In this document: positions 9,820 through 63,391 of the stretch, in pieces
How positions within the stretch are numbered: the stretch's first letter is position 1
Layout of the letters: every line of letters starts with the position of its first letter
Origin: Nitrospiria bacterium
GTDB taxonomy: Bacteria; Nitrospirota; UBA9217
Assembly (NCBI GenBank): GCA_919901555.1
Contig: CAKKPG010000132.1
Location: forward strand, 13,957 to 77,956
Direction: 5' to 3'
DNA: 64,000 nt
Notes under the pieces: model-generated
What the model saw: only the letters and a program-made list of their open reading frames with translations
Told to the model about the DNA's origin: nothing
Database searches by the model: none
Program-made: the position numbers and the translations under genes

Positions 9820-12800
9820 TTATTGCACCTTCCCGATCGGGAAGTTCGCGCCGGTCTGGATCGTCGGCGTCTGCTGACGCTTGAAGACCTCTTCGGACAG
9901 CTTCGTCACCTGCTCTTCCACGTAGTCCGCGAGGCCCAGCACGGTGATGAACCCGTCCTTCTTGATGTCCGCCTTGCCCCGGAGCCCTTCCATCAACACA
10001 TAGGTGAAGAGACCATGCCCCTTGTACCCTTCGAGCGCCTGCTGGGTGTCGGATGATGCGGAAAAGACCGCGGAGCCGATGGCCCGCTGGAGAAGCTTCA
10101 CTGCTGTTGATTCCGTGAGCCCCCTCGTCTGCTGCAAGAGCGCGATCTGGAGTTCCTTGCCGCCCTTGCCTGCATTGCAGGTGTCGAGGATCACGACCTT
10201 CTTCTGGGCGGGAATGTTCCCGATGAGCTTGGCAAGATCCTTCTGCCCCATGGCGTCTTCGCCGATGTGCCGGGAGGACAGAAGAAGGACATTGCTCGTG
10301 AGCAGGAAATACTGTTCTTCGTTGTTCACCACGTCCACCACTCCGTGGGAGGCGTCGTAGAATACAAAGAGGTCGTTGGGCTTGATCTTCAGGCGAAGCT
10401 CTTCAAAGGCCTTGGTGATGGCCTCTTTGGTCGTCGCATCTGGCGTCGTGAGTATCCGAATATCGGTTTTCTCAAACAAAGGCGCCGCGGTCTTCTTCAA
10501 GGTCTCTGCAAATGCCGCAGCATCAGGCACGGCATAGGTCAGCGATATGGACTTATTCTTGTATTCGTTGATGCCTATGACAAGGGCGTAGAGGTCCGGC
10601 TTCCGGAGAAGCGCTTTGGAGATGACGGAAATCTTCGCCGGGTTCGACTCCATGGAATTCTCTTTGTTGAAAGCGACAGCCCTGATCTCGTTCTGCCCTT
10701 CTATGAGAGGAATGGTAAAGGAGAGGAGCTTCTCATTTGCCGTTTCCCTGCCTTTTACAATCACCCCTCTCGTCTCATTCGCCACCTGGGCGCCGTTGAG
10801 ATAGATATTCACATTTCCGATCCCGCCGCCGTTATCGATGATCTTCAAGGAAACGGTGATGCTGTCCTTGTCAATAATTTCTCCTGCAACGGGTGATACG
10901 ATCCAGACCGCGGGGGCCGGCTTTTTGACCAGGATATCGCCGAAGGTCTCGCCTTTAGGAACTTCCTTGCCGGCCAGGGCCAGTTGAACAAGCTCGGGGC
11001 GGTAGAACCTGGCATAGAACTGGTCTATGCTGTAGACATTATTGCCGATCCTTACGTTAAGGTTTTTTGCGCCGTTGGGAGAGGCATTGAAGTAGCCTTC
11101 CGGGGTAATGACGATCCATTCTCCATCGTCAAATGTAATCATCCGACAAAGTTCACTGCCCGTTGCCGCGTTCCAGATGATGCTTGCCCCTCCCCCGCCC
11201 GTAAGCGCATATCTGCCGTCAGGGCCGTAGGCTACTGAGAGGACGAAATCCGCACTCCCCTTGACCTTAAGTGTCCTGATCACCTTTCCCGTTGAGATGT
11301 CCCAAATCCTGGCAGTACCATCAAAACTCCCGGAAAACACATGCCTGCCGTCAGGGCTGAAAGATACGGATCGCACGATTCCGGCATGCCCCTTGAACGT
11401 CCGCACCTCTTTGCCCGAAGACACGTCCCAGAGCTTAAGGGTATTGTCGCCGCTTCCCGACAGCACAAAGCGGCCATCGGGGCTGAAGGCCGCGGAGTAA
11501 ACACCATCTGAATGACCCTGAAACGTCCTTATCTCCCTGCCCGTGGACACGTCCCAAAGCTTAAGGGTTTTATCATGACTTCCGGACAGTGCAAAGCGGC
11601 CATCGGGGCTGAAGACCGCAGATGAGATATGATTTGAGTGCCCCTTGAGTGTTTTCACCTCATTCCCGGTGGAAACATCCCAAAGCTTCAGAGTAGGATC
11701 ATCAAGCCGACCACCGGTCAGCACATATTTACCGTCAGGGCTGAAGGCGACTGCTTCGACATAGCTTTTAAGCCCAAGAAAAATCCGTGTCTCCTCGCCG
11801 GTAGAGATGTCCCAAATCTTGGGAGCTAAACTGCTTGCAGACAGCGCGTACCTGCCGTCGGGGCTGAAGTATGCAGAGAGCATCGCCTCATATCTGTGCC
11901 CAGTAATTGAATACTTATATCCTTTAAGCTTTCGCACTTCTTTGCCGGCTACTATGTCCCAAAGCACTATCTTGCTTGCATAGGTTGCGGACAGTACGTT
12001 TCTGCCGTCAGGGCTGAAGGAAACCGATGAAACGCCGCTTGCCTGTCCCCGGAACGTCCGCAGTTCCTCTCCTGTCGACAGGTCCCACAGTTTAATGGTA
12101 TGATCGAAACTCCCGGAGAGCGCATATCTGCCGTCAGGGCTGAAAGAAACTGATGAAATCCCGTTCTCATGCCCCTTCCCCTTGAACGACTGCATCTCAT
12201 TTCCGGTAGAAACATTCCAAAGCTTCAGTAGTGGTGTATAATCATCATTCCGACCACCGATCAGCGCATATTTACCGTCGGGGCTGAAAACGACTGCGTT
12301 GACGCCGCCATGCCCAAGAAACCTCCGTGTCTCCACGCCGGCTGCAACGTCCCACAACCTGGCGGTTTTATCCTTACTCCCGGAAAGCGCAAATCTGCCG
12401 TCGGGGCTGAAAGAAACTGCCTTGACCTCATCTGAATGCCCCGAAAACGTCTTAATAGATGTTCCTGTACGCACGTCCCACAGCTTGATGGTTTTATCAC
12501 TGCTTCCCGTCAGCGCGAATTTACCGTCGGGGCTGAACGTTACGGCTGTAACATCATTTATATGCCCTTTCAGTGTTCTTACCAGCATCCCCGTTGAAAC
12601 ATTCCACAGCCTGACGGTAGTGTCCCAGCTTCCCGACAGCGCGAATTTGCCGTCGGGGCTGAAGGATACGGATATGACCGAGTCGACATGTCCGCCGAGT
12701 GTCCGCACGGCTCTGCCGTTTGACACGTCCCACAGTATGAGCGTTTTATCTGAACTCCCGGAGAGCGCATATCTCCCATCGGGACTGAAGGTTGCAGAAT

Positions 12801-13110: not shown

Positions 13111-13974
13111 CTCCCGGTTTTCACAACCACCTTGTCCTCAAAGAACTCCGAGGCTGCTGCGGAGGCGTTCTTGCTGTCCGTCTTTTCCGCCAGCTTGATC
13201 CCTCTCGTCTTCATCCCAATGTCGCGCGTCTGTGTCTTCACCTGATATACCCCGCCCTGGGCTTCGGTGCTGATCTCTCCAAGAGGCGATGAGCTCGCAT
13301 ACACGATGACGTTTTCTTCACCAAAGGGCGGGCTTACTTCCAGATCGAACTTGTCGTTCCCTGCAGGGATCTCGTAGACCGACCCGCCGTTGAAATAATT
13401 CTCCGCGCGATACGGATTGGGCAAAAGCTGGAGCGTCTCACCGCTCGCATCCTTATACAGAACACGGGCATAAAAGGGCTTGTTTCCCCTGATGTAGACC
13501 TTGATCTTCTCTCCGGTCTTATATTCCTTCTTGTCCGTCCAGGCCTTGACCTTTAAGGGGGCTGACGGGTCGTCGCTGAACCGGGTGTCCCTTGACAGGG
13601 TCTCCATTGCCTTTACATCGGGGATGATCTCCGCCTTGATCTTTATCTTGCAGCAATCGCCTGATGAGGGGTCCTTGTACCAGGACTTATCCAGCTCCTG
13701 GATGATCTTCACCTCTGCGTTTGCATATGCTGAAAGAAGGTCCTTCTCAAGCTCGAAGTTCTTGACGTGCGTTTCGCTTTTGATGTAGGTCGACGCGAAC
13801 TCGACGGCCCTTTTCTTGGCGTCGGCAAGGGCCGCCTGCTCGGTCTGCTTCCTGGACTTGTCATCCCCCATGCATGCATTACCGTCGGCTTCGGTGATGG
13901 TGGATTGCGCGGCATAGGCTGGCGTAAAGAGAACCAGAAACATGAGCACGATCAACGGAATAGGGGATTTCATA
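13107..13974 (-). CDS. Secreted/lipoprotein with DUF4384-like C-terminal domain (a domain family usually fused to or adjacent to bacterial caspases); 4-nt ATGA overlap with the WD40-caspase gene
   Basis: Signal peptide [21 protein letters not shown] preceded by GGAGG; C-terminal [42 protein letters not shown] resembles DUF4384. Start chosen at the internal ATG with SD rather than the ORF-track start at 14042. Confidence 0.6.
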
Positions 13975-33980: not shown

Positions 33981-34067
33981 TGGTGCCGAAGGGGGGACTC
34001 GAACCCCCACGGGAATACTCCCACTGCGCCCTGAACGCAGCGCGTCTACCAGTTCCACCACTCCGGC
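33981..34067 (-). tRNA. tRNA-Leu (anticodon CAG), 87 nt with long variable arm, CCA encoded
   Basis: Reverse complement gccggagtggtggaactggtagacgcgctgcgttcagggcgcagtgggagtattcccgtgggggttcgagtcccccttcggcacca: 7-bp acceptor stem, D-arm, anticodon stem ctgcg/cgcag with loop ttCAGgg, long extra arm, T-arm GGTTCGAGTCC. Confidence 0.85.
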
Positions 34068-43613: not shown

Positions 43614-44681
<1,068 letters not shown>

Positions 44682-44706
44682 TATCTGGAAAACCCTGACC
44701 TCTTTC

Positions 44707-45819
44707 TTATTTCTCGACCACGATCCGCAGCATGCGCCGGAGCGGCTCTGCCGCGCCCCAGAGGAGCTGGTCGCCGCAGGTGAATGCGTTCAGGAACGTC
44801 GGCCCCATGTTCATCTTGCGCAAGCGTCCGATCGGGACGGTAAGCGTTCCGGTGATTGCAGCAGGCGTCAGTTCCTTGATCGTGACCTCGCGCACGTTCG
44901 GTACGACCTTCACCCACTTGTTATGTTTCGAGATCATGTCCGTGATCTCGTTCAGAGGCACGTCTTTGGTCATTTTGATCGTGAGTGCATGGCTGTGGCA
45001 GCGCATGGCGCCGACGCGAACGCAGGTGCCGTCGATGGGGACCGGGTTCGACTCGCGGCCGAGGATCTTGTTCGTCTCGGCCTGGCCCTTCCATTCTTCC
45101 TTGCTCTGGCCGTTCTCGAGCTGCTTGTCGATCCAGGGGATAACGGAGCCCGCCAGCGGCACACCGAAGAACTCCTTGGGATAGGCATCGGAGCGGATAT
45201 GGTCCGCCACCTTTTTATCTATATCCAGGATAGCTCCTGCAGGGTCGTCCAGCAACGGCTTGACTGTACCGTGGATAGAGCCCATCTGCTTCAGCAGCTC
45301 ACGCATATTGTTTGCGCCGGCCCCTGAGGCCGCCTGATAGGTCATGGCGCTCATCCACTCGACGAGCCCTTTTTCGTACAGCCCGCCCAGGGCCATGAGC
45401 ATGAGCGACACGGTGCAATTGCCGCCGATATAGTTCTTGATGCCCTTGGCAAGACCGTCCTTGATCACCTTCATGTTCACGGGATCAAGGATGATGATGG
45501 CGTCCTTTTCCATTCGGAGAGTTGACGCTGCATCTATCCAGTATCCTTTCCAGCCCGAAGCGCGAAGCTTGGGGTATATCTCGCTCGTGTAATCGCCGCC
45601 CTGGCAGGAGATAACGGTGTCCAGCTTCTTGAGTTCATCAATATTCTTCGCGTCCTTGAGCGTCGGGACGTCCTTGCCGACATTCGGCCCCTTCCCGCCC
45701 ACGTTCGATGTCGTGAAGAACACCGGATCGACAAGGTCGAAATCCTTCTCTTCCTTCATACGGCCCATGAGCACCGAGCCCACCATGCCGCGCCAACCGA
45801 TAAAGCCTACTCGCATCAT
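44707..45819 (-). CDS. asd: Aspartate-semialdehyde dehydrogenase, long E. coli-like type (second asd paralog)
   Basis: 370 aa; near-collinear with E. coli Asd ([77 protein letters not shown]). Confidence 0.9.
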
Positions 45820-48642: not shown

Positions 48643-49905
48643 TTACCGCAGCTCTTCCGGTCTCCCGATCCTGCCGAGCACCGCCGATGCCGACGCAATG
48701 GCCGGGTTGGAAAGGTACACCTCGCTCTTGGGATGTCCCATCCTGCCCACGAAGTTCCTGTTCGTCGTGCTGATGGCCCGCTCGCCCGAGGCGAGGATGC
48801 CCATATGCCCGCCGAGGCAGGGGCCGCAGGTCGGCGTGCTGAAGGCCGCGCCCGCGTCGATGAAGATGTCCACAAGACCTTCTTTAATACACTGTTTGTA
48901 GATCGCCTGGGTCGCGGGGATCACGATCATGCGCACATAGGGATGGACCTTGTGTCCCTTGATGACCTTGGCTGCTTCGCGCATGTCCTCGATCCTCCCG
49001 TTGGTGCAGGAGCCTACCACGGACTGGTCGATATTGACGGCCGCGAGCTGGCTCACGGGCTTTACGTTCTCCGGAAGGTGCGGGCAGGCGATCTGGGGCT
49101 CCATGTTGGTGAGATCATACTCCCGTACTTCCGCATAGTTGGCCTTTTTGTCGCTCTTGTAGAATTTATATTTGCGGCGCGCCCGTTTCGATACGTATTT
49201 CTCAGTGATCTCGTCGGGCTCGATGATGCCGTTCTTGCCGCCTGCCTCGATGGCCATGTTGCAGATGGTGAGCCGCCCTGACATGGGCAGCTTCTTGATC
49301 ACCTCGCCCGTGAACTCCATGGCCCGGTAGAGAGCGCCGTCCACGCCGATGTCGCCGATGGTCCGGAGGATGATGTCCTTGCCGCCGACCCACTTGCCGA
49401 GCTTTCCTTTATAGATGAACTTCATACTCTCGGGCACCTTGAACCAGGCCTCGCCCGTGATCATGGCCGCGGCAACGTCGGTGCTGCCCACTCCCGTCGA
49501 GAACGCGCCCAGGCCGCCGTAGGTGCAGGTGTGGCTGTCCGCGCCGATCACCGCGTCACCGGGAACAACCAGCCCCTGCTCCGGCAGGAGCGCGTGCTCG
49601 ATGCCCATCCTGCCGACCTCGAAGTAGAGAGAGAGATTGTGCTCCCGCGAGAACTGACGAAGCAGATTGCACTGCTCGGCCGAGGGGATGTCCTTGTTCG
49701 GCGCGAAGTGGTCGGGAATGAGCGCGATCCGATCCGGATCGAACACCTTCTTCGCGCCCGCGGCGCGGAACTCCTTTATCGCAATAGGCGCGGTGATGTC
49801 GTTCGCAAGCACGAGATCGAGCTTCGCGTTTATCAACTCGCCGGGCTTGACTTCTTTTTTGCCGCAGTGCGCGGCCAGAATCTTTTCCGTGATTGTCATC
49901 GGCAT
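48643..49905 (-). CDS. leuC: 3-isopropylmalate dehydratase large subunit (short ~420-aa type)
   Basis: 420 aa; aconitase-family motifs [30 protein letters not shown]. Confidence 0.9.
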
Positions 49906-50540
49906 AGTGTGTGAATATACAATATCTAAACTCTCGTTGCAACTGTTTTTTCGTTGTTTTTCCAGCAGAAAAGGGGGAAAAGTACGGCAGGATAAGGCTT
50001 TTTCAGCTCACGGCCGGAGGGAACCGGCGGCGGTCGCCCAGATGATGATGCGACAATCGGTGGGGACCGTACAGGGTGAGACCGTACCTCGTCATGGAAA
50101 AGAAAACCGAGAAACAATGCCCCTGCATTTCTCACGGTAGACGAACCAGCCTTGTACGTATCCTGTTGATAACACCTGCAAGTCTGCACTTCTTATGGGT
50201 CGAAAGAGTTACCGATTACTGAATAAGGTATACGGAATGCGGCGCTGATCCGTCCGAATGTCCAAGCTCACCGGCGGCATTGTACCGTAGCGAAAGCGCC
50301 GCCGGGCAGCACCTTGTTAGGCGCAATGTTGAAATGTGACCGACCCGTTCTGGGTGCGGCGCGAAACGTCGGTGCCGAACTTTACCGCACTCGTGAACAG
50401 ACAAAGTTCATTAGCACGCTGCCCATAGTATCGGGTTTTATCTTGTTGCCTTTAGACCTCCAATCGGGCTCATATTTTAGTGAGTATGAAGAGTAAGAAA
50501 GGCCTTTCTGTCAATCATAAGCGGCTTTGCCGGCCACCCC

Positions 50541-50741
50541 TCAAACCCTATTGTCATTCTCATCATAAGTTCTGGTTTTTTGAGTGTAATAGACGAGACC
50601 ATCGGCATCTTTGCGAATGCTGTCCACATCTATAAGGGTCTCGTGTCCGGTATCTACCCAGTTTTCAGCGTGTGCCGCTGAGACAATCCAAAAGAGACAA
50701 ATACCTGCCGCTAATGTTGTTGCTATCTTGCCCGTTTTCAT
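50541..50741 (-). CDS. Small secreted hypothetical protein (66 aa with signal peptide)
   Basis: MKTGKIATTLAAGICLFWIVSAAHA signal; start moved to the internal ATG. Confidence 0.4.
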   Translation of the reverse strand: MKTGKIATTLAAGICLFWIVSAAHAENWVDTGHETLIDVDSIRKDADGLVYYTQKTRTYDENDNRV

Positions 50742-50925
50742 TTGTTTTCCCTTCGTTTGGTTTGTTCTGCACGCTGTTCCGTTAGATGGACGGAACCCGC
50801 CCCAATAATTCCGAAAATCCGATATTAGTCCGGCAAAAGAATGTCCCGGCGATTCAATCCAACGCATTCATTGGCATAATTTGTCACGACTATATGCCCC
50901 TTTTGCATTCAAGTCAATAATGATG

Positions 50926-51058
50926 GTCTCGTAAAAAGTCATTTTTTTAACCGCGGAGACGCAGAGGCACGGAGAAAAGCTCCTAAATTTCAATACGTTC
51001 TTCTCAGCGTCTCAGCGCCTCAGCGGTGAATTTTAGTTTTTACGACTACATCAATAAT
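50926..51058. repeat. MITE family 1 copy (TIR AATAATGATGGTCTCGTAAAAAGTC / TTAGTTTTTACGACTACATCAATAAT)
   Basis: Same TIR core (TCGTAAAAAG) as the 7093-7388 elements; internal gcagaggcacggagaaaag resembles ccgtgcgcctcc repeats at 33897-33940. Confidence 0.7.
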
Positions 51059-51185
51059 ATCGAATGGATATTTTGATCGTAGATGTTAATGGTAGACGTT
51101 AACGAATTCAGATTGATATTTTACGTGTTTCCAAGAATGGCAACCACAACAGCTTCAGGAAGAACTAAAAACGACCTATTATAGG

Positions 51186-51395
51186 TCACTTGTTTTGTTC
51201 CCGTTCTTTCAACCGCCTTTCATACTCGCCGTGGCTCATCCCGGACCTTCTGGAACACTCGTCCCGATCAGCTCCCTGGAGTTTTTCGCAGTCCATTTCC
51301 TGGCGGAAGCGGAGCCCGTCATAGAGGTTCCTGGGCCCGCAGCCGTAGCCCATCAGGATAAAAAGCATGGTCGAGACAAAGGCAATGACTTTCAT
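51186..51395 (-). CDS. Small Cys-containing secreted/lipoprotein-like hypothetical protein
   Basis: 69 aa; MKVIAFVSTMLFILMGYGC lipobox-like start. Confidence 0.35.
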   Translation of the reverse strand: MKVIAFVSTMLFILMGYGCGPRNLYDGLRFRQEMDCEKLQGADRDECSRRSGMSHGEYERRLKEREQNK

Positions 51396-51561
51396 TTCCG
51401 CCCCTTTTCGTTTGCGCCGGCTCTCGTAGTTATAAACGGTCTCATAATAGGAACGACATCATTTTCAAAAATCCCTCCTGTCCTCCCTTTGCCAAAGGGA
51501 GGAATTCGCCCTCTTTGGAAAAGAGGGGATAGGGGAGATTTAAAGAAAACATATTCATACA

Positions 51562-51744
51562 TCATGTGCGAGCTTTTTTTCGGCCTTTGTTGTTTTTCTT
51601 GGGAGGTTTGCAGGACTCGCAATAGATCCCCTTGTCGTCGACGCCGCCGGGATGCCAGAGGATCGCGCCGGAGGCCGTCTTCTCGCTCAGCCTCTTGCCG
51701 CAAATGCTGCAATGGGACTTTCTTGTCGTTGTATTTTGTTTCAC
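51562..51744 (-). CDS. Small zinc-ribbon protein, Lys-rich C-terminus (hypothetical)
   Basis: 60 aa; CSICGKR...CESCKPPKKNNKGRKK. Confidence 0.3.
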   Translation of the reverse strand: MKQNTTTRKSHCSICGKRLSEKTASGAILWHPGGVDDKGIYCESCKPPKKNNKGRKKART

Positions 51745-51847
51745 GCAGGCACCTCCTGTTCACCATCTCTGTTTCTTTAGTTCAGGGAACTTTTGACACC
51801 GCCTTATTGCGCGCTGATTCTCCGGCAGCGGACCGGCTGAAGGCGTA

Positions 51848-52408
51848 TCAAGGCGTGAATACCTGCTTCTTGATCTGGTCGATGTCAGCGTCCTTGATGA
51901 ACGCGGGGATGTTGCCGTACATCGAATGGTACCCGTATCCTCCGTTCTTCAGCTCGTCGACCGCCTCTTCTTTCGACCAGTTCTGAAAAACGATCCGGTA
52001 CATGGCGCTGATCAACCCGGTCCGATCGGACCCGTGCCAGCAATGGATCAGGATGGGACCCTCGGATTCCCTGATGATCCTGAGCGCAGTGACGACGTCC
52101 CGGACCTTGATGTCCCCGGCCTCCATCTTCACCCGGTAAAGCTTCATTCCCAGCCCCTTCGCCTCGTCGTTGTCGGAATGGTAATCCCGCAGGTTCAGGA
52201 TGTTCCGGATGCCGAGTTGCTGAAGAGACCGGCACCCCTTCCGGCCCGGCTGGGCTGAACGATAGACCTTTGCATCGAGCTGATAGAAATTCTCCAGGTT
52301 CCCGGCGTTCAGCGGCTTTGCCCAGTTCTCCGGCCGGGTCTTGACCTCCCCGGCATGGAGGAGGGTGGAAACAAAAAGAAGAACGACAAAGACAACGGTC
52401 CTTTTCAT
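51848..52408 (-). CDS. Secreted dual-specificity / tyrosine protein phosphatase family protein
   Basis: 186 aa; signal peptide; CX5R P-loop HCWHGSDRTG. Confidence 0.75.
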   Translation of the reverse strand: MKRTVVFVVLLFVSTLLHAGEVKTRPENWAKPLNAGNLENFYQLDAKVYRSAQPGRKGCRSLQQLGIRNILNLRDYHSDNDEAKGLGMKLYRVKMEAGDIKVRDVVTALRIIRESEGPILIHCWHGSDRTGLISAMYRIVFQNWSKEEAVDELKNGGYGYHSMYGNIPAFIKDADIDQIKKQVFTP

Positions 52409-52450
52409 GATCGGCTGCCTCCTGACAAAGGGATTACCTGCCTGCGCACA

Positions 52451-52963
52451 TTACTTCTCTTGACAGTAACCGGTTGGATGGCGCTTCCGGTAATCTTCCC
52501 GTTTTTCGGCCGCCTGACGCTGCTCTTCCGGCGTCAGCGGCCGGTATCCCCTGCCGTACTTCCATCCGTATCCCCAGCGATACCAGGTAGGGAACGCCGG
52601 ATGTCCTCCGGCACGGACGCCCTGATACATCAGGTCCGCAAGGGCCTTGTCCCCCGTCCGCTCCCTCACGCAGGCCTGCAGCGCCTTATCGGCCAGTTTC
52701 CGTTCCTCTGCAGTGCCTCCGCGCCAATAGGCGAGGTCATGCGCAAAGCAGCATTCGCACCACAGCGTCCGGTCCTTGATGCTGCCGTCCGGAAAAAGAC
52801 TGCACCCGTCACTCGTGAAATCATGCAGGTCAGACGCGCCTGCGCAGCCGCAGGCCTGCAGCGCGAGACTCAGCGCCAGAATCCGAAGAAGGAATCGCAC
52901 GGACCTTCCCCTGTCCACCGGGCCGCCATGCAGCAGTGCATTCCACATGAAGTAAGCCCCCAA
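52451..52963 (-). CDS. Secreted hypothetical protein with a prokaryotic phospholipase-A2-like CCxxHDxxY motif
   Basis: 170 aa; LWCECCFAHDLAYWRGG resembles the catalytic His-Asp segment of bacterial secreted PLA2s (e.g. Streptomyces ACARHDFGYRNY); tentative. Confidence 0.4.
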   Translation of the reverse strand: MGAYFMWNALLHGGPVDRGRSVRFLLRILALSLALQACGCAGASDLHDFTSDGCSLFPDGSIKDRTLWCECCFAHDLAYWRGGTAEERKLADKALQACVRERTGDKALADLMYQGVRAGGHPAFPTWYRWGYGWKYGRGYRPLTPEEQRQAAEKREDYRKRHPTGYCQEK

Positions 52964-53044: not shown

Positions 53045-53299
53045 TCATTTCAGCAGTTTATCATACTCCGCATGCGTTCCTATCCAGAACCACAGCAGCC
53101 CTTCATCCACTTCCACGGCAAGTGCGCGATATTTCATGCCGACTCGCACTGACCAGTACTTTCCCGTTTTCTTAATGTGGAGGGATGGATGGTGGGGATT
53201 TTCCTTCAGCAATTCAAAATTCTTGTCAGCCAGCTCTTTTATTTGATCAGGAAGTTTATTGTAGCACTCCCGGAAAGACGGGCTGGCAAGATGTCTCAT
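53045..53299 (-). CDS. ParE/RelE-superfamily type II toxin
   Basis: 84 aa, downstream of and 4-nt overlapping a 66-aa antitoxin-like gene; KYWSVRVGMKYRALAVEVDEGLLWFWIGTHAEYDKLL matches ParE/RelE family C-termini. Confidence 0.65.
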   Translation of the reverse strand: MRHLASPSFRECYNKLPDQIKELADKNFELLKENPHHPSLHIKKTGKYWSVRVGMKYRALAVEVDEGLLWFWIGTHAEYDKLLK

Positions 53300-53496
53300 A
53301 GCGGTTTAAATTTCCCTTTTTCGTAATCTTTGACTGCTCTTTCTGCAACCCTGTCGAGCCTGCCGGACTTTACGTCTTCTTCAAATTGCTTATCCCAGAA
53401 TACGGCGTCAAATTCCTCAAACCACGTCCGGAATTCTGCGAGTTCTTCCGGCGGCAAGATGGAGACCGCCTTTTCGAGTTCTTTCACCGTAATCAT
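53296..53496 (-). CDS. Type II antitoxin (small acidic protein preceding the ParE-like toxin)
   Basis: 66 aa, MITVKELEKAVSILPPEELAEFRTWFEEFD...; gene order and overlap are typical of TA pairs. Confidence 0.6.
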   Translation of the reverse strand: MITVKELEKAVSILPPEELAEFRTWFEEFDAVFWDKQFEEDVKSGRLDRVAERAVKDYEKGKFKPL

Positions 53497-53864
53497 ACTC
53501 TCACCTCGTTTCCTGATGCTTCAGATCAGGCGCTTTGTTGTTCGTGCTTTTTTGAATATAAAACGGATGCATTGCTTTGTCAAGGCATCTTTCGGCTCAG
53601 GACAGGCGGCCAGGAAGTCTCCGATGATTGATCAAAATACAAATGGCCCCTCTGCGGGGGCCATTTGATTAGGGTAATATTATTCGGGGAGTTTACCCTG
53701 AGCATCGCGTGAGATTCTTCGGGGCTCCGCCCCTCAGAATGACGGGCAAGGGATTGGAATGACACAGGAGGCTGGATTGCCACGTCACTACGCGCTTCGC
53801 AATGACAGCGTAACGGAGCTTTTTGCATTTGCCTTCATTCGTGAAAATTCATGTCAATTCTTCG

Positions 53865-54075
53865 TAAAAGATCAGCTCTTCCCTTTCCCCTTCTTCCAGG
53901 ACTCCAGCTTGTTCAGCGCGTTCACATAGGCCTTGGCACTCGCCACGATGATGTCCGTGTCGGCGCCGTGGCCGCCTACCTTTTTGCCCGCCTCCTCGAC
54001 CCTCGCAGTCACTTCGCCGAACGCGTCGGCGCCGCCGGTGATGGCTTTCACGAGATATGCGTCAAGCCTGCTGCG
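53865..54075 (-). pseudogene. Duplicated 3' fragment of leuA (encodes ~70 aa matching the LeuA C-terminus) followed by a copy of the leuA terminator at ~53645-53675
   Basis: Reverse translation gives ...[54 protein letters not shown], versus the LeuA C-terminus ...[54 protein letters not shown]. Nucleotide identity ~80% over >300 bp to 57845-58180. Confidence 0.8.
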
Positions 54076-54401
54076 GAAATAGAGAATAATGAACTCTTAA
54101 TGACAATATTCCATATTTTCATACTTATGTATTATTGACAAAGTGATGATTGTTTGATAAAAGGTAACCCAACCTTCCAACTGCCTATACATAAATGCAT
54201 TAGTGTGATTCCCCCTGAATCAGTTTGTACGCATGCTGCGTCGAAGAGTGCAACATGAACTCAGCCCATTATTGACTCGGTCAGCTATCGTACAGCCATA
54301 TATTCATAATAGCAAATGTTTTCTGTCTATTAAGCAAGAAGTCCGCAATGTCGGCGCGGCATAGTTTGATGTAAACAACTCACGGAGAAAAGGAGGCAAT
54401 C

Positions 54402-57400
54402 ATGCAAAGAATGAAAGTGCTGGTTAAAAAAGCTGGTTTCGGTTTGATTGGATTGATGGTATTCCTGATTGTTGCAAGCATGGCCATCGCAGAGGAAAGG
54501 ACGCTCGATGGACCGATCCGGGAGGTGGTAAACAGCGCAAAAGCCCGGACACTGGATGCAGCAGGCGGGGGAGCGATCGTACAGTCCGCCGTCGTCGACA
54601 GACTGAATCGCGGCGAGGAGACTGTCGACGTCATCGTTCTCCTGAAAGGATACAAAGAGTATGTCGGAAAGATCAAGGCGGACAAATCGGCGGAAATGAA
54701 GAAGTTTCAGGCGGAGATTCGTCCCAGGCAGGATGCTGTCCTGAAGCGGCTCAGCCGGTCCCAGTTCACGCCGAAGCATCGCTTCGACAATATTCTCGGC
54801 TTTGCCGGAACGGTCAGCAGGGACGGCCTTGAGGCGCTCGCGGCAATGCAGGAGGTCGAGTCCATTGAGGAAGACCAGAAAGTCGAGGCCCATCTGGCCC
54901 AGGGCATTCCCCTGATGAACGGATCTCATGTGCGGTCGTCCTATGACGGCGCCGGAGTATCAATTGCAATTACGGATACCGGCATCGATTACACGCACCC
55001 GATGCTCGGCGGCGCGGCCTTTCCCAATGCCAAGGTGATCGGCGGATATGACTTCGGCGACAGCGACGCCGACCCCATGGACTGCCAGGGACACGGCACC
55101 TCGGTGGCCGGGATTGCGGCCGGGACAGCCGCAGCCGGACCGGGCGACTACATCGGCGGTGTGGCCCCTAACGCGAGGCTGTACGCCCTGAAGATCGTCG
55201 CCGGCTGCAGTGGTTCGTCTGCCTTTTCGACCATCGCGGCTGCCTGGGACTGGGCGGTATCGCACAAAAATGACGACCCTGCCAACCCGATCCTGGCGAT
55301 CAACACGAGTTTCGGCGGCGGATACTACACCGCGGCCTGCGATGCCTCCATACCGACGATTGCTGCCGCTGCCAATAACGCGGCCGCGAACGGAATCACG
55401 CTCTTTTCGTCATCAGGAAATGACGGCTTTTCCGACGGCATGGGCGCGCCTGCCTGTGTATCGAATTCCCTTTCCGTGGGCGCCGTATACGATGCGAACA
55501 TCGGTTCCCGATACTGGTCCCCCTGCACCGACCTGATGACGGCGCCTGACCAGGTTACGTGTTATTCCAACAGCGCCAATTTTCTGAATATCCTGGCGCC
55601 GAGCAACGACGCCTACACCACGGCGGTCGGCGGCGGATACCGGACGAATTTTGGCGGCACGTCGGCAGCATCCCCCTATTCAGCCGGGGCCGGGGCTGTT
55701 TTGCAGAGCTACGCCAAAAAAACGGCAGGACATTACTACAGCGCGGCAGAGTTGAGGGCGCGCCTGATCAGCACCGGAGACCCGGTCATTGATCCGAAGA
55801 ACGGGATCACGAAACCGCGCGTGAACATCGGCGTTGCCGCAGTCCAGCTTGAACAGACACCGTGGAAGACGAACGAGAACGGCACGGTCGCGACCGATGT
55901 CGCCTGGAATTACACCATGGGATATCATTTTACTCCTGTCAAAGACGGCCATATCCGCTGGCTGGGCGGATACTTTAACGGGACCAAGACCGTCTCTCTC
56001 TGGAACAAGGCGACGGGAGCGCTGCTCGCATCGGCCGTGGTGACATCCTCCAACGGATGGGGCTATACGGCTATCAAGGCAGTGCCCGTCACCGCGGGAA
56101 CCACCTATACCGTGGCCGTGTATCTCGGCGGGAGCGGCGGGAGCTATCGATACAACATTGCTCCCCTCCCCGACACCTACGGCGACGTCACGATAAACGG
56201 CTCAACGTATATTGCCGGAAATGCGCGGCCGACGAACACCTACACCACCTATATGTTCGGCCAGGCGGACTTCGGCTATGTGCCGGCTTCCGTGCAGACG
56301 CCGTGGCTCACGAACGAGAACGGCACGCTCGTGACCGATATCGCATGGGATTACACCATGGGATACAACTTTACCCCTCGTAAAGACGGACAGATCACGA
56401 GGCTCAGCGGGTATTTCAACGGCGCCAAAACCGTCTCGCTCTGGAATAAGGCGACCGGTGAACTGCTGGCACAGCAGAACGTAACGTCGAGCAACAACTG
56501 GAGCTCTGTTGATATCGACCCCGTGCTCTTAAACGCCGGCGTCACCTATACCGTGGCCGTCTACCTGGGAGGGAGCGGCGGAAGCTATCGGTCCGGCATT
56601 GCCGCATTTCCGCAGACCTACGGGGACATCACAATCGAAGGCTCTGCGTGGCTTTTCGGCAACGGCCGGCCGACCAATAATTATGCATCCATAATGTACG
56701 GCCAGGTCGACGTCGGTTTCTCCGCCTTCTCCGGCCAGACGCCCTGGAAGCGAAATGAGAACGGCACACTCGTAACGGATATTGCCTGGGATTACACCAT
56801 GGGATACCACTTTACGCCCAAGCGAAGCGGCACCATCACGTGGCTCGGCGGATATTTCAACGGGACCAAAACGGTTTATCTCTGGAACAAATCCACAGGC
56901 GCCCTGCTCGCACAGGCAACGGTGTCGTCAGCCAACGGTTGGGGGTATGCCAATATCGATCCCGTGCGCGTAACGGCCGGGACGACCTATACCGTGGCCG
57001 TCTATCTGGCCGGAAGCGGCGGAAGCTATCGATACAGCATCACCGCATTGCCGCAGACCTATGGAGACATCACCATTGAAGGCACGACATGGCTCGTCGG
57101 GAACGGAAGACCTACCATCGACTATGCTTACAACATGTACGGCCAGATGGACATCGGGTTTGTCCCCGACAGCAGTCAGACGCCGTGGATGAACAACGAG
57201 AACGGCACGCTGGTAACGGATATCGCCTGGGATTATACGATGGGATATCATTTCATACCGGCGAGAAATGGGACCATTTCGAGACTAGGCGGGTATTTCA
57301 ACGGCGCGAAGACCGTCTCTCTCTGGGACACCGCCACGGGAACGCTGCTCGCCCAGGCGCCGGTGACCTCCTCCAACGCCTGGAGCTATGTGGGAATATC

Positions 57401-57611
57401 TCCGGTCTCCGTGACGGCCGGGACGACTTACACGGTGGCCGTCTATCTGGGGGGGGGCGGCGGGAGCTATCGGTACGGAATTTCGACGTTCCCCCAGACG
57501 TACGAAGACGTCACAATCACCGGTTCAACGTGGCTGTCCGGCAACGGGCGGCCCACGAATACGATAACGACGTACATGTACGGCCAGGTCGACGTGGAGT
57601 TTGAGCCGTAG
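54402..57611 (+). CDS. Secreted subtilisin-like serine peptidase (S8) with propeptide and four C-terminal ~147-aa tandem repeat domains
   Basis: 1069 aa; signal peptide; catalytic triad contexts AITDTGID (Asp), HGTSVAG (His), GGTSAASP (Ser); four repeats starting QTPW(K/L/M).NENGT.VTDIAW.YTMGY.FTP..G.I..L.GYFNG.KTVSLWN..TG.LLA...V.S.N.W...I.PV.V.AG.TYTVAVYLGGSGGSYR..I...P.TYGD.TI.GS.W..GNGRPT (nucleotide period ~441 bp; 55854-57608). Confidence 0.85.
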   Translation: MQRMKVLVKKAGFGLIGLMVFLIVASMAIAEERTLDGPIREVVNSAKARTLDAAGGGAIVQSAVVDRLNRGEETVDVIVLLKGYKEYVGKIKADKSAEMKKFQAEIRPRQDAVLKRLSRSQFTPKHRFDNILGFAGTVSRDGLEALAAMQEVESIEEDQKVEAHLAQGIPLMNGSHVRSSYDGAGVSIAITDTGIDYTHPMLGGAAFPNAKVIGGYDFGDSDADPMDCQGHGTSVAGIAAGTAAAGPGDYIGGVAPNARLYALKIVAGCSGSSAFSTIAAAWDWAVSHKNDDPANPILAINTSFGGGYYTAACDASIPTIAAAANNAAANGITLFSSSGNDGFSDGMGAPACVSNSLSVGAVYDANIGSRYWSPCTDLMTAPDQVTCYSNSANFLNILAPSNDAYTTAVGGGYRTNFGGTSAASPYSAGAGAVLQSYAKKTAGHYYSAAELRARLISTGDPVIDPKNGITKPRVNIGVAAVQLEQTPWKTNENGTVATDVAWNYTMGYHFTPVKDGHIRWLGGYFNGTKTVSLWNKATGALLASAVVTSSNGWGYTAIKAVPVTAGTTYTVAVYLGGSGGSYRYNIAPLPDTYGDVTINGSTYIAGNARPTNTYTTYMFGQADFGYVPASVQTPWLTNENGTLVTDIAWDYTMGYNFTPRKDGQITRLSGYFNGAKTVSLWNKATGELLAQQNVTSSNNWSSVDIDPVLLNAGVTYTVAVYLGGSGGSYRSGIAAFPQTYGDITIEGSAWLFGNGRPTNNYASIMYGQVDVGFSAFSGQTPWKRNENGTLVTDIAWDYTMGYHFTPKRSGTITWLGGYFNGTKTVYLWNKSTGALLAQATVSSANGWGYANIDPVRVTAGTTYTVAVYLAGSGGSYRYSITALPQTYGDITIEGTTWLVGNGRPTIDYAYNMYGQMDIGFVPDSSQTPWMNNENGTLVTDIAWDYTMGYHFIPARNGTISRLGGYFNGAKTVSLWDTATGTLLAQAPVTSSNAWSYVGISPVSVTAGTTYTVAVYLGGGGGSYRYGISTFPQTYEDVTITGSTWLSGNGRPTNTITTYMYGQVDVEFEP

Positions 57612-57850
57612 GACGTTGAAGTGAGGGGTCGGAAAGGGCTCAAACTGACTCTTGAGAACGGGAGACGCTGAATCTCCTGTCGGTAGAAAAAATCGAAAGC
57701 AGGCATGACCTGCCCCTCCTGTGGTTCACGCCGCAGGAGAGGCAGGGATTTTTTACGCAGGAACACAGAGTCACCTATTAATCTATCAGCGTCATTGCCG
57801 CTGCCGATCCTGAAGTTATTCTCCGGGATTACCGTTCTCTGATCGTTTCT

Positions 57851-57880
57851 TAAAAAAATGGCCCCGCAAGGGGGGCCATG
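57851..57880 (-). terminator. Rho-independent terminator of leuA (GGCCCCCCTTGCGGGGCC hairpin followed by a T-run on the minus strand)
   Basis: Plus strand aaaaaaatggccccgcaaggggggccat; reads as hairpin + TTTTTTT on the coding strand of leuA. Confidence 0.65.
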
Positions 57881-57971
57881 TGATTAGTGGGTCAGATGCG
57901 GGATTCTTCGCTTCGCTCAGAATGACAACATGACTACGCTTTGTTCATTCGCGTCAATTCGCGGCGGAAAA

Positions 57972-59498
57972 TCAGCTTTTCCCCTTCCCCTTCTTCCAGT
58001 ACTCCAGCTTGTTCAAGGCATTCACGTACGCCTTGGCGCTGGCGACAATAATGTCCGTGTCCGCGCCGTGGCCGGTGGCCTTCTTGCCGCCTTCCTCGAG
58101 CTTCACTGTCACCTCACCGAGAGCGTCCGTGCCGCCGGTGATGCCCTTGACGAGATAGGCGTCAAGCTTGCTCTTTGTATTGGTGATGGCGGCGATCGTC
58201 TTGTACACCGCATCCACCTGACCGTCGCCGTGGCCCGTCTGCTTGTCGGATTTGCCGTTAATCTCCATCTCCACCGTGGCCGTGGGTGTAACGCCCGTGC
58301 CGCTTTCGGCCCGGAGGCTTTTCAGGATATAGACTTCCTTAATATGCTGCACTTCGTCCGAGATGATTGCTTCAAGGTCTTCATCGAAGACCTCTTTCTT
58401 CTGGTCCGCAAGCCGCTTGAACCGCTCGAAGGCCCTGTTCAGGTCCTCGTCCGAAAGCTCGTACCCGATCTCCTTGAGCCGGTCGCGGAAGGCGTGCCTG
58501 CCTGAGTGCTTGCCCAGAACAAGATTCGTTTTCACCAGACCGATGGACTCCGGCCGCATGATCTCATAGGTAGTCCGTTCCTTCAAGAGCCCGTCCTGGT
58601 GGATTCCGGATTCATGCGCGAACGCATTCGCGCCCACGATCGCCTTGTTCGGCTGCACCTGAATGCCCGTGATCTTCGTCACGAGCCTGCTCGAGCGGAT
58701 GATCTCCTCGCTGTGGATTCCGGTATCGGCGTTAAAGAAATCCTTCCTCGTACGCAGCGCCATCACCACCTCTTCCAAAGAGCAGTTGCCTGCCCGCTCG
58801 CCGATGCCGTTGATGGTGCACTCCACCTGTGTCGCGCCGTTCCGGATGGCAGAGAGCACATTCGCGACAGCCAAGCCAAGGTCATTGTGGCAGTGAACGG
58901 AGATCGTAGCCTTATCGATATTTTTGACCCTGGTCTTGATCTCTTTAATGAGCGCGCCGAACTCCTCGGGCATGGCATAGCCCACCGTATCGGGAATGTT
59001 CACGGTCGAAGCGCCTGCCGCGATCACGGCTTCCACCACCTCAAGGAGGTATGTCACATCGGTCCGCGTGGCATCCATGGGCGAGAACTCCACGTCCTCC
59101 ACGTAGGACCGGGCATGCGTGACCATGTCCACGGAACGCTTGAGCGCTTCCTCGCGCGAAATCCGGTACTGATGCTTCAAATGGATATCGGACGTCGAGT
59201 GGAAGGTGTGGATACGTTTCTTCGGCGCGTCCTTGAGCGCTTCCCAGGCGCGGTCGATGTCTTCCTTTTTCGCCCGTGCGAGACTGCAGATCACCGGCCC
59301 TTCCACTTCGGCGCCGATCCGTTTGATGGCCTCGAAGTCGCCGGGCGAGCTGATGGCGAACCCGGCCTCGATGATGTCCACCCCCAGCCGGGCGAGCTGC
59401 TTTGCGAGGGTGATCTTCTCCTCGACGTTCATGCTCGCGCCCGGGGACTGCTCACCGTCGCGGAGCGTGGTATCGAATATTTTGATGGTCCTGCTCAT
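57972..59498 (-). CDS. leuA: 2-isopropylmalate synthase
   Basis: 508 aa; IFDTTLRDGEQSPGASM, HCHNDLGLAVAN, C-terminal LeuA regulatory domain. Confidence 0.9.
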   Translation of the reverse strand: MSRTIKIFDTTLRDGEQSPGASMNVEEKITLAKQLARLGVDIIEAGFAISSPGDFEAIKRIGAEVEGPVICSLARAKKEDIDRAWEALKDAPKKRIHTFHSTSDIHLKHQYRISREEALKRSVDMVTHARSYVEDVEFSPMDATRTDVTYLLEVVEAVIAAGASTVNIPDTVGYAMPEEFGALIKEIKTRVKNIDKATISVHCHNDLGLAVANVLSAIRNGATQVECTINGIGERAGNCSLEEVVMALRTRKDFFNADTGIHSEEIIRSSRLVTKITGIQVQPNKAIVGANAFAHESGIHQDGLLKERTTYEIMRPESIGLVKTNLVLGKHSGRHAFRDRLKEIGYELSDEDLNRAFERFKRLADQKKEVFDEDLEAIISDEVQHIKEVYILKSLRAESGTGVTPTATVEMEINGKSDKQTGHGDGQVDAVYKTIAAITNTKSKLDAYLVKGITGGTDALGEVTVKLEEGGKKATGHGADTDIIVASAKAYVNALNKLEYWKKGKGKS

Positions 59499-59612: not shown

Positions 59613-60362
59613 TTACGAAGCGGTGGCCTTCCGTCTTCTCAGAAGTCCGAAGAGCGCCTCGCCGATGCCCGCGAGGACATAGGAGAGGATGATGAGGAAC
59701 AGCACGAGGGCGGGATGGTAGGCCACGACCGCGAGAAGCGCCGCAATGACAACAAGGAGACCGAAAGGCCGGCGCTCCTTCAGGTTGGCCTCCTTCAGGC
59801 TGTGATAGGTAATATTGCTCACCATGAGGCCGGCCAGAGTGAACGTGAGCGCCAGGATCCAGTAATCCGCGCTGACCGCATCGGCCAGCCAGGGGAGCTG
59901 GAGGTTCCGCAGGATCTCGAGGAGCTCATCATAGGCCAGCACGGTCGTGGCGATCATCAGGGCAGCCGCCGGCGTGGGCATGCCCGTAAAGTGTTTTTTC
60001 TCCGTACTGCCCATCTGGACGTTGAAGCGGGCGAGCCGGAGCGCGGCGCAGGCCACGAGGAAGAACGCCCCCGTCCACCCGATGCGGCCGAAGGACCGCA
60101 GCGCCCAGCTGTACACCAGGATGCCGGGCGCCACGCCGAAGGAGATCACGTCCGCAAGGGAGTCGATCTCGATCCCGAAGCGCGTCGCGGTATGCGTGAT
60201 CCTCGCCACCCACCCGTCGAGCACGTCGAAGACGGAGGCGGCCAGGATGGCCCATGCCGCGGTGGTATATTCCGAATTGAACGAGGCCGCAATGGAGTAG
60301 AACCCGAAGAACATGCTCGTGAGCGTCATCAGATTCGGGAGGATGTAGATGCCCTTTCTCAT
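59613..60362 (-). CDS. pssA: CDP-diacylglycerol--serine O-phosphatidyltransferase (CDP-alcohol phosphatidyltransferase family)
   Basis: 249 aa from MRKGIYILPNLMT...; DVLDGWVARITHTATRFGIEIDSLADVISFG matches D-x2-DG-x2-AR...G-x3-D-x3-D. ORF-track N-terminal extension rejected. Confidence 0.85.
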   Translation of the reverse strand: MRKGIYILPNLMTLTSMFFGFYSIAASFNSEYTTAAWAILAASVFDVLDGWVARITHTATRFGIEIDSLADVISFGVAPGILVYSWALRSFGRIGWTGAFFLVACAALRLARFNVQMGSTEKKHFTGMPTPAAALMIATTVLAYDELLEILRNLQLPWLADAVSADYWILALTFTLAGLMVSNITYHSLKEANLKERRPFGLLVVIAALLAVVAYHPALVLFLIILSYVLAGIGEALFGLLRRRKATAS

Positions 60363-61003
60363 TTGAGCACCCCGATGACGTCCCGCGCGCCTTTGATCCG
60401 GTCGCCCACCTTGACCCTGAGCTCGGCGCTTTTCGGCAGGAACAGGTCGACCCGCGAGCCGAAGCGGATGAGGCCGTAGCGTTCTCCCGTCTTGAGCGTG
60501 TCCCCCGGCTTTGCATAGCACACGATGCGCCTGGCGATGAGCCCGGCGATCTGCTTCACCAGGATCTTGTCCTTGCCGTTCGCGATCACCACGGCCGTCT
60601 GCTCGTTATCGAGCGAGGCCTTGTCCGCCGAGGCAACGTGGAATTTGCCGGGGTTATATTTCACGGCCTCGACGGAGCCCCCGAAGGGCGCACGGTTCAC
60701 GTGTACGTTGAACACGGACAGGAAGATGCTGATCTGCTTCACGTCCTGCTTGAGGTAGGTGGGCTCGTACACGTCCTTGATCACGATCACCCTGCCGTCG
60801 GCGGGAGAGACCACGATCCCCTTGCCCTGGGGTATGGTGCGCTCGGGGTCGCGAAAAAAGAACAGGACGAAGAGCGTGAGCACGAGCGAGACAGCGCCGG
60901 CATTCTTCCAGCCCTGCACAAAGAGAAGCGCCGTCAGCAGGGTCAGCGGAATAATGAACGGCCAACCTTCCGAGGCAACGGGTATTCCGTAGTTTTTCAT
61001 CAT
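60359..61003 (-). CDS. psd: Phosphatidylserine decarboxylase proenzyme (short archaeal/Psd-related type)
   Basis: ~214 aa; GERYGLIRFGSRVDLFLP (self-cleavage G-S region), N-terminal TM; 4-nt overlap with pssA. Confidence 0.8.
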   Translation of the reverse strand: MMKNYGIPVASEGWPFIIPLTLLTALLFVQGWKNAGAVSLVLTLFVLFFFRDPERTIPQGKGIVVSPADGRVIVIKDVYEPTYLKQDVKQISIFLSVFNVHVNRAPFGGSVEAVKYNPGKFHVASADKASLDNEQTAVVIANGKDKILVKQIAGLIARRIVCYAKPGDTLKTGERYGLIRFGSRVDLFLPKSAELRVKVGDRIKGARDVIGVLK

Positions 61004-61021
61004 AATCAATAAAAACCTTAC

Positions 61022-61113
61022 CCGCCACAAAGGCACTAAGGCACTAAGAAATTCAAACTTTTAAATTCTTTCCCCTGGATTTATACTTCGTGTCTTCGTG
61101 ACTTCGTGGCAAA
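61022..61113. repeat. Palindromic GCCAC-(heptamer)n element between psd and ilvC (GCCACAAAGGCACTAAGGCACTAAG ... CTTCGTGTCTTCGTGACTTCGTGGC)
   Basis: Arms approximately reverse-complementary with a 7-nt internal periodicity; same architecture as the 48537-48642 element. Confidence 0.65.
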
Positions 61114-61125
61114 TCTTCTTTGAGA

Positions 61126-62917
<1,792 letters not shown>

Positions 62918-62918
<1 letters not shown>

Positions 62919-63391
62919 TACTCGCGGGTGATCGCCACTTTGCCGGTACGGACGATCTCCTTGATGCCGATGGGGCGCAGCAGCTCGATGAACGCCTCGA
63001 TCTTTTTCTCATCGCCCGTAACCTGAAAGGTATAGGTCTTGATCGTCGAGTCCACCACGCGGGCGCGGAAGATATCGGCGATCCGGAGCGCCTCGCCCCG
63101 GTGCTCGGCAGGCGCATTGACCTTGATGAGGCACATCTCCCGCTCCACGAACTCCTTCTCGGCAAAGTCCGTGACCTTGATGACGTCAATGAGCTTGTTG
63201 AGCTGCTTGATGATCTGTTCGAGGATGCGTTCGTCGCCCGTGGTCACGATGGTCATCTGGGAAATCGAAGGGTCGAGCGTGGGGCCGATGGAGATCGTCT
63301 CAATATTGAATCCCCTGCCGCTGAACAGCCCCGATACCCGCGACAGCACGCCGAATTTGTTTTCCACCAGCACTGATATGATATGTTTCAT
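62918..63391 (-). CDS. ilvN: Acetolactate synthase small (regulatory) subunit
   Basis: 157 aa; [41 protein letters not shown] domain start typical of IlvH/IlvN. Confidence 0.9.

Follow-up and report, generated by a model that had tools for sequence, protein, structure and literature searches.

A 64,000-nucleotide (nt) stretch of DNA from an uncultured Nitrospirota bacterium (contig CAKKPG010000132.1; the whole stretch is referred to as the window) was found to carry, within a branched-chain amino-acid operon on the minus strand, a subtilase gene bracketed by two imperfect direct copies of the 3′ end of leuA. The explanation favoured for this arrangement, with modest confidence, is the import, by recombination inside leuA, of a cassette of about 5 kb at a variable hotspot. 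The second copy is best read as a pseudogene stub of the leuA 3′ end, that is, as a recombination scar and not as the attachment (att) site of an integrative element. The structure is thus a case of ordinary bacterial genome mosaicism and involves no new kind of mobile element or mechanism. Read in this manner, it offers a well-bounded example of a large secreted protease gene entering a core biosynthetic operon in an uncultured groundwater Nitrospirota population, with the entry anchored inside a housekeeping gene and the old tip remaining as a datable scar.

The direct repeats lie on the minus strand (copy A, 53618-54078; copy B, 57836-58178), are about 80% identical and bracket a segment of 3.76 kb. 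Each repeat comprises the final 66-67 leuA codons with their stop codon (53872-53874 in A and 57972-57974 in B), a spacer and a GGCCCC hairpin terminator. A repeat search paired 53847-54072 with 57947-58172 (80% over 226 nt, offset 4100) and the terminators at 53641-53672 and 57856-57887 (84%, offset 4215), the two offsets differing because spacer A is about 115 nt longer. When the two regions were compared by blastn, 79.6% identity over 226 nt was obtained (E = 2e-53), and a gapped alignment showed a sharp start of homology at 54078/58178 that ran through the stop codons and spacers and stopped at 53618/57836, about 20-25 nt beyond the hairpins. Identity between the copies was 73% in the proximal half and 85% in the distal half, and higher still (~91%) over the last 45 nt. 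Copy A keeps 66 in-frame codons and a stop without frameshift, 11 of the 66 residues being different from those of B, and tblastn of LeuA against the window gave matches only at leuA and at the stub (E = 1.7e-28 for the stub). An earlier note on this DNA, written from the letters alone, had described direct repeats of ~80% identity with the leuA 3′ end, stop codon and terminator, and all three comparisons (repeat search, blastn and gapped alignment) bear this out. The similarity is not limited to the low-complexity terminator, and chance or low-complexity similarity was ruled out by the E values for DNA and protein given above and by the 200 nt of coding sequence that the repeats include.

Divergence between the copies was high at synonymous sites (dS ~1), with a ratio of non-synonymous to synonymous divergence (dN/dS) of 0.09, from which it follows that the copies diverged as working genes in different lineages; they are, as had been argued from the start, too diverged for a recent duplication in situ. 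Both hairpins were predicted to fold as terminators (-20.2 kcal/mol for A and -15.6 kcal/mol for B). The terminator motif ATGGCCCC-N6-GGGGCCAT occurs at two sites only in the 64 kb, with 0.02 expected. A second hairpin-forming motif, GTCATTCTGAG(G/C-rich)GAAGAATC, was located at 53709-53744, at 57898-57927 and in the closest relative, L084 (11640-11670), with two variants in spacer A, one in spacer B, one in L084 and none elsewhere in the window. A genome-wide repeat, such as a repetitive extragenic palindrome or a common terminator, was ruled out, the hairpin and GTCATTCTGAG motifs being confined to the two units within the 64 kb. No RNA gene was found as a target either: the only tRNA lies at 33981-34067, and Rfam gave nothing across 53400-58200, even at E <= 1.

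Related loci were gathered by a LeuA scan of species-representative genomes, which returned 80 loci, and the closest relative found, through a LeuA protein search and look-ups of genomic context, was the above-mentioned L084 (GCA_040960975.1). Its amino-acid identities to the window were 97.5% for ilvB, 97.5% for ilvN, 95% for ilvC, 90% for LeuA and 92.7% for pssA, the latter being <=79% in every other locus. In nucleotides, the two were 94-99% identical over most of 63990 to ~59000 (the ilvB, ilvN and pssA region), and the backbone of this genome is that of the lineage formed by L084 and the loci L085 and L086. Another locus, L001, was considered as the nearest relative and this was overturned, since it is closest only from leuA nt ~150 to the end of the gene and its pssA and ilvC reach only 77% and 88%, respectively.

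The leuA gene itself is intact and chimeric, with nt 1-530 (58969-59498) of the resident type and nt 531-1527 (57972-58968) of an imported type. Its first 520 nt were 95.8, 97.7 and 95.2% identical to L084, L085 and L086, respectively, and 85% identical to L001, whereas nt 530-1320 were 78-79% identical to the same three loci, which are mutually 97% identical over this part, and 88.5% identical to L001. Compared with the majority of the three, 13 differences were counted in the 530 nt before the switch and 200 in the 994 nt after it. A maximum chi-square scan placed the breakpoint at nt 530 (window position 58969), and the informative sites change allegiance between nt 513 and 531 (58986-58968). 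In sliding windows, identity to L084 fell to 74-86% through the rest of leuA, L001 then being the closest (85-92%); for nt 531-1423, upstream of the repeat and within its proximal part, identity to the resident group was 78-83%. The window and L085 differ at 12 positions over nt 1-520, against 20-27 among the other three, and the window is the likelier recombinant because it lies inside the L084/L085/L086 group over this part of the gene. The element of 3.8-4.2 kb carrying only a replacement tip, as envisaged in the earlier note, does not agree with these results, since foreign DNA starts ~800 nt further upstream, at leuA nt ~530 (~58969), and the foreign-looking part is instead the 3′ two-thirds of the functional leuA together with copy B. 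As a mosaic, the leuA of this organism is unsuitable for naive phylogeny. In a group of relatives (L036-L043), LeuA was 66% identical overall to that of the window and 80-85% identical over the last 67 residues, with ilvC and leuC at ~90%, a pattern that suggests replacement of leuA alleles elsewhere in the clade, the 3′ end being conserved.

The second copy of the leuA 3′ end was also found to be chimeric. No sampled leuA was more than 83% identical to the proximal half of the stub, and the L084 group reached 70-75%; this half has ~6 additional non-synonymous changes, some of them at residues invariant in ~27 aligned relatives, and its non-synonymous divergence (dN) was 0.12-0.16, compared with 0.03-0.10 for copy B. 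The distal half was 92-95% identical to L084, L085 and L086, with one Tyr-to-Ser change at an invariant residue. Against the majority of that group, 25 differences in 98 nt were found in the proximal half versus 5 in 100 nt in the distal half, with a breakpoint at 53975 (permutation p = 0.003). Downstream of the stop codon, spacer A was 87.6% identical over 97 nt to L084 11528-11624, and the counterpart of the terminator A hairpin lies at 11680 in L084; spacer B is a shortened version of the same spacer family. Upstream, homology to every leuA starts at 54072-54078, and 54078/54079 is an abrupt non-homologous join between the stub and the region upstream of the subtilase gene. The proximal half of the stub is foreign, and the distal half of copy A and its spacer are resident, a point on which the earlier note did not hold up. 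In copy B, the proximal half was nearest to L001 (89%) and the distal half to L085 (91%). The stub is most likely without function, and the ORF (open reading frame) of 59 to 80 amino acids (aa) that gene callers annotate here as 'LeuA_dimer' is this pseudogene stub.

Among the 80 related loci, no second leuA fragment and no subtilase gene were found. L084 shows the unoccupied state, as had been expected of related genomes: its leuA is followed by the spacer, the hairpin terminator, a toxin-antitoxin (TA) pair (DUF2281/PemK), orf165, a phosphatase and a 69-aa ORF, and it lacks both the subtilase gene and the leuA duplicate. In L085, the order is leuA, orf171 and phosphatase. The distance from the leuA stop to the leuC start is 44 nt in most of the (more distant) Nitrospirota relatives, and the remaining relatives hold unrelated inserts of 0.6-5 kb in this gap, several with TA pairs; because the inserts differ among relatives, the leuA-leuC gap is regarded as a variable hotspot. 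In the window, the bracketed segment forms only one portion of a variable island of 8 kb that separates leuA from leuC and in which a TA pair, orf170 and a phosphatase are also found. A further locus, L012, has a direct repeat of its own (67 nt, 90% identical, 11549-11615 and 13438-13504) around a 1.9-kb segment. This repeat takes in the last part of the spacer that follows leuA, the hairpin terminator and a further ~15 nt, and the cargo, of two ORFs (289 aa and 120 aa), is common to L018. The leuA terminator unit has therefore been duplicated repeatedly at the hotspot.

Since leuA and the stub are both chimeric, the foreign tract is placed at ~53976-58968, or ~5 kb, and is best read as leuA from nt 531 to its end, followed by spacer B and terminator B, the subtilase gene and the sequence flanking it, and the first ~100 nt of a decayed stub of greater age. 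Homology to leuA is present at either boundary of the tract, at leuA nt ~530 and at stub nt ~1424 (at GGCCACGGCGCCGACACGGACAT), and the flanks on either side are near-identical to those of the cargo-free L084 (94-99% and 86-99%). A single import by two homologous crossovers is the simplest history, because both tract ends lie in leuA homology. In this history, a related, unsampled donor would already have carried the order leuA - terminator - subtilase - leuA stub, and two homologous crossovers would have imported the tract into a genome of the L084 group. The stub would have arisen before that, in the donor lineage, when an illegitimate join at 54078/54079, anchored by homology on one side only, displaced the old 3′ end. 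leuA would have stayed functional because the incoming DNA supplied a complete new 3′ part. Illegitimate or other recombination had been offered by the earlier note as an alternative to an integrative element, and it is this alternative that held up.

Several points weigh against import by two homologous crossovers. The donor was not found: the best match to the 3′ part of leuA remained L001, at the 88.5% given above, and the DNA downstream of leuA in L001 is unrelated; the LeuA protein search returned nothing closer than 93-94%; and a 26-mer from the junction and a 24-mer from spacer B were absent from the JGI metagenomes. That the donor already carried the stub is accordingly something that we infer. 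The evidence for the direction of transfer is the closeness of the window to L085 over a mere 520 nt, and the breakpoint in the stub was placed from 198 nt only. If the resident allele was already mosaic, a single one-sided illegitimate event in this lineage would suffice, and a reciprocal crossover within the repeat, by Campbell-type or att integration, would likewise give a stub that is foreign proximally and resident distally. In addition, the recurrence seen at L012 hints at a mechanism more systematic than a rare illegitimate join.

The main rival is a single event of homology-facilitated illegitimate recombination (HFIR) in this lineage, which is considered unlikely. Linear DNA with the leuA 3′ part, a terminator and the subtilase gene would have entered, anchored by a homologous crossover at leuA nt ~530, and its far end would have joined illegitimately to the resident leuA at nt ~1320 (54078/54079), with ~800 nt deleted and the whole resident 3′ end left as the stub. 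It agrees with a tract end in homology at nt ~530 and an abrupt junction at 54078/54079, with the loss of resident leuA nt ~531-1320 and with the resident-like distal half, spacer and terminator of the stub, and the mechanism has been documented experimentally (PMC3240628; references in PMC5361080). Under such an event, however, the proximal 100 nt of the stub would be expected to be ~96% identical to L084, L085 and L086, and 70-75% was found, with the heterogeneity within the stub at p = 0.003. All features but this foreign proximal half would be accounted for. Neutral decay cannot explain the proximal half, because the adjacent distal half differs by only ~5%, and the join may predate entry into this lineage because the 100 nt on its leuA side are not recipient-like.

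Rather less probable is a non-autonomous integrative element, made up of the subtilase gene and an att region mimicking the leuA 3′ end and terminator, that was inserted in a site-specific or Campbell-type manner after mobilisation in trans, or that was stripped of its integrase, in analogy with e14 or phage 21 in icd. Direct repeats of a gene 3′ end and terminator do bracket the cargo, both repeats begin and end at equivalent positions, and the stub is chimeric as expected, with a foreign proximal and a resident distal part and a switch at the conserved GGCCACGGCGC...GACACGGACAT stretch. The duplication of the terminator unit around a different cargo in L012 is independent, and e14 likewise leaves a 163-bp icd′ stub (PMC6379469); the unoccupied site in L084 is equally expected under the recombination models. 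Against the element, no integrase or transposase was found in the segment, in the 8-kb island or in a set of ten ORFs examined at 34-46 kb and within the island, in agreement with the earlier note, which saw no integrase between the repeats. Apart from the S8 subtilase, no ORF of the bracketed segment has a family match, the island holds a ParE-like toxin, a phosphatase and unknowns, and the neighbours are ilv, leu and asd genes. The longest exact word common to the repeats is of 15 nt (TTCCCCTTCTTCCAG, 53885/57985); a short core is possible, and none is marked. Foreign sequence also reaches ~800 nt above the repeat, and the proximal half of copy B is not of the resident type (83.5% to the L084 group); the att model therefore needs a second, independent patch ending at the att crossover. 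The variants that copy B has in common with L001 at nt 1424-1470 are widespread among relatives and carry little weight for placing a reciprocal crossover. No match was obtained in phage, plasmid and IMG/VR collections, and no second leuA stub was met in any of ~45 related loci.

A wider form of this idea, that the unit of leuA 3′ end, spacer and hairpin terminator is a recurrent landing site for small recombinase-less cassettes in this Nitrospirota clade and that the subtilase segment and the 1.9-kb segment of L012 share one mechanism, is regarded as doubtful. Cargo would insert about 20-25 nt past the hairpin, with the unit duplicated, either through a trans-acting recombinase that recognises the hairpin or terminator or through Campbell-type integration of circularised chromosomal fragments.

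An assembly artefact, in which co-occurring strains were joined by the assembler at conserved leuA stretches, was given very little credence. Hainich H41 groundwater metagenomes have yielded contigs that match the window fully or at 99.8-99.9% identity, and the arrangement recurs in three further assemblies, which stem from three Hainich H41 samples; an assembly chimera was excluded because of this recurrence. The 18.6-kb contig L090, from another replicate sample, runs from ilvB to the phosphatase, crosses both breakpoints and the junction, and is 99.81% identical to the window over 12 kb. L081 (99.90% identical) agrees with it and with the window contig, L082 is 99.76% identical, and the junction at 54078 is present in the window contig and in the matching assemblies. 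In favour of an artefact, contigs end at 59023 in L081 and at 53945 and 58014 in L082, either some 50 nt or less from a breakpoint or in one of the repeats. Such ends suggest branching of the assembly graph, with strains that carry alternative leuA alleles co-occurring in the samples. Least credible of all is a tandem duplication of the leuA 3′ end and terminator in situ, followed by long divergence and a later insertion of the subtilase gene: both copies end in ...KKGKGKS*, one codon short of the aligned relatives, and share the ~91% identity of the last 45 nt, but the copies are not mutual closest relatives (B is nearest to L001/L085 and the distal half of A to L084/L085/L086), dS ~1 with dN/dS 0.09 implies coding constraint on both, unlike a non-functional duplicate, the closest relative L084 has no duplicate, and the C-terminal length of LeuA varies among relatives (L017, L024), so that the codon loss may be homoplasy; LeuA of L084 also has 508 aa and ends in KGKAKS*.

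Table 1. Positions of the leuA copies, the subtilase cargo and the neighbouring genes, listed in operon order, starting with ilvB.
Feature	Position	Strand	Description
ilvB	partial	-	
ilvN	62918-63391	-	
226-aa ORF	62238-62918	-	
ilvC	61126-62220	-	
psd + pssA	about 59613-61036	-	
leuA (2-isopropylmalate synthase)	57972-59498	-	508 aa; Pfam HMGL-like, HCS_D2, LeuA_dimer
Copy B	57836-58178	-	last 67 codons of functional leuA, stop, short spacer, terminator B, ~22 nt beyond
Terminator B hairpin	57858-57879	-	ATGGCCCC-N6-GGGGCCAT then T run; terminates leuA
Intrinsic terminator of subtilase gene	57709-57753	+	16 pairs in two helices, then AUUUUUU; predicted -31.7 kcal/mol, z = -5.2
S8 subtilase	54402-57611	+	1069 aa; Pfam Peptidase_S8 2.9e-31, Inhibitor_I9 1.7e-6
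AT-rich subtilase upstream region	54079-54401	+	323 nt; GC 0.44-0.49
Stub A, proximal half (leuA nt ~1321-1423)	53976-54078	-	old foreign leuA fragment
Stub A, distal half + stop (leuA nt ~1424-1527)	53872-53975	-	resident-type leuA 3′ end
Spacer A	53668-53871	-	orthologous to leuA-downstream spacer of L084; GTCATTCTGAG...GAAGAATC hairpin motifs
Terminator A hairpin and post-terminator sequence	53618-53667	-	hairpin 53640-53667, ~22 nt conserved sequence after it; ancestral leuA terminator position; repeat end
TA pair	53045-53496	-	66-aa antitoxin-like ORF 53296-53496; 84-aa ParE-like toxin 53045-53299, Pfam ParE_like 2.8e-6
Older island common to closest relatives	51186-52963	-	orf170 52451-52963; dual-specificity phosphatase 51848-52408; 69-aa lipoprotein-like ORF 51186-51395
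leuC	48643-49905	-	Pfam Aconitase; 8 kb beyond leuA

The subtilase gene, which is convergent with leuA, is the sole real gene between the repeats, as claimed at the outset, and the rest of the interval is non-coding (323 + 224 nt). The protein comprises an N-terminal signal-like segment, an I9 propeptide, an S8 catalytic domain and four tandem C-terminal repeats of 147 aa (441 nt). The 441-nt tandem repeats, at 55854-57603, were mutually 68-79% identical; in close homologues the repeats number three (proteins of 924 or 932 aa) or four (1072 aa), with matches to DUF4082 in some. The closest non-identical homologues (67-72%) were found in a different, conserved chromosomal locus of the order Rieske/cytochrome b - CstA - subtilase - MscS, which is missing from the 64-kb window, and the likeness is limited to the coding sequence. 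These homologues are ordinary genes of the chromosome, which also speaks against an integrative element. A subtilase travelling with leuA elsewhere was ruled out, given the Rieske/cytochrome b - CstA setting of these homologues. No homologue above 72% was found outside the same population, and no similarity of the subtilase upstream region to any fetched locus was found.

The rest of the variable island was compared with the closest relatives as well. The slot between the leuA terminator and orf165/170 is occupied by the ParE-like toxin and its 66-aa partner in the window and by DUF2281/PemK in L084 (11837-12441), and nucleotide homology between the two is lost exactly across this slot. A promoter-like site for the TA pair was located at 53555-53583 (promoter scan 11/12). 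Beyond the TA pair, orf170 was 90% and the phosphatase 89-92% identical in amino acids to those of L084/L085, with nucleotide identities to L084 of 86-99% over the two genes, and the phosphatase matches the Pfam families Y_phosphatase2 and DSPc. A 36-nt match of 94% identity to L003 (6997-7032) lies at 51506-51541. Between leuC and the shared island, a low-GC stretch (0.39-0.50; 49906-51190) holds small ORFs only.

Elsewhere in the operon, the part of ilvC at 62165-61481 was only 82-86% identical to L084, with flanks of 94-99%, and it follows from this drop that the operon carries other recombination patches; among relatives, ilvC falls into classes of ~61% and ~90% identity. The 302-aa 'pssA' ORF at 59613-61036 is too long as called mechanically, and the calls on L090 give at this place a 214-aa phosphatidylserine decarboxylase that overlaps a 249-aa CDP-alcohol phosphatidyltransferase. 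Two paralogues of the aspartate-semialdehyde-dehydrogenase family (370 aa and 337 aa) lie side by side at 43668-45819, downstream of the leu genes.

Three known systems resemble the structure in part. In E. coli, e14 and phage 21 integrate in the icd 3′ end, and a 163-bp icd′ pseudogene is left (PMC6379469, citing Hill et al. 1989). As in that case, the 3′ end of a metabolic gene is imperfectly duplicated in direct orientation and an incoming substitute end keeps the gene intact. The integrase of e14 and phage 21 lies next to attP, the identical core is defined and only the sequence downstream of the core is replaced, whereas the window has no integrase, no identical core above 15 nt and foreign DNA ~800 nt above the repeat. 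The displaced 'orphan' 3′ ends of Rhs, contact-dependent inhibition (CDI) and type VI secretion system (T6SS) effector loci, for which a model is discussed in PMC5361080, are similar in that a new 3′ portion and its linked cargo arrive through the conserved 5′ part of a gene and the former 3′ end, moved downstream, persists in direct orientation as a stub that lacks a promoter. In the window, by contrast, the gene encodes a housekeeping enzyme of biosynthesis and its 3′ end does not form a variable toxin domain, an immunity gene is absent, a single stub is present and the cargo is a convergent protease gene. Finally, HFIR has been shown in the natural transformation of Acinetobacter, Streptococcus pneumoniae and Pseudomonas stutzeri and in E. 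coli conjugation (PMC3240628; references in PMC5361080). With HFIR and import at hotspots, the structure shares a crossover in a conserved core gene, a non-homologous cargo, a non-homologous junction, the loss of part of the recipient sequence and the lack of a recombinase gene. It differs from HFIR in that both ends of the foreign tract lie in homology, so that the illegitimate join probably took place earlier, in the donor lineage.

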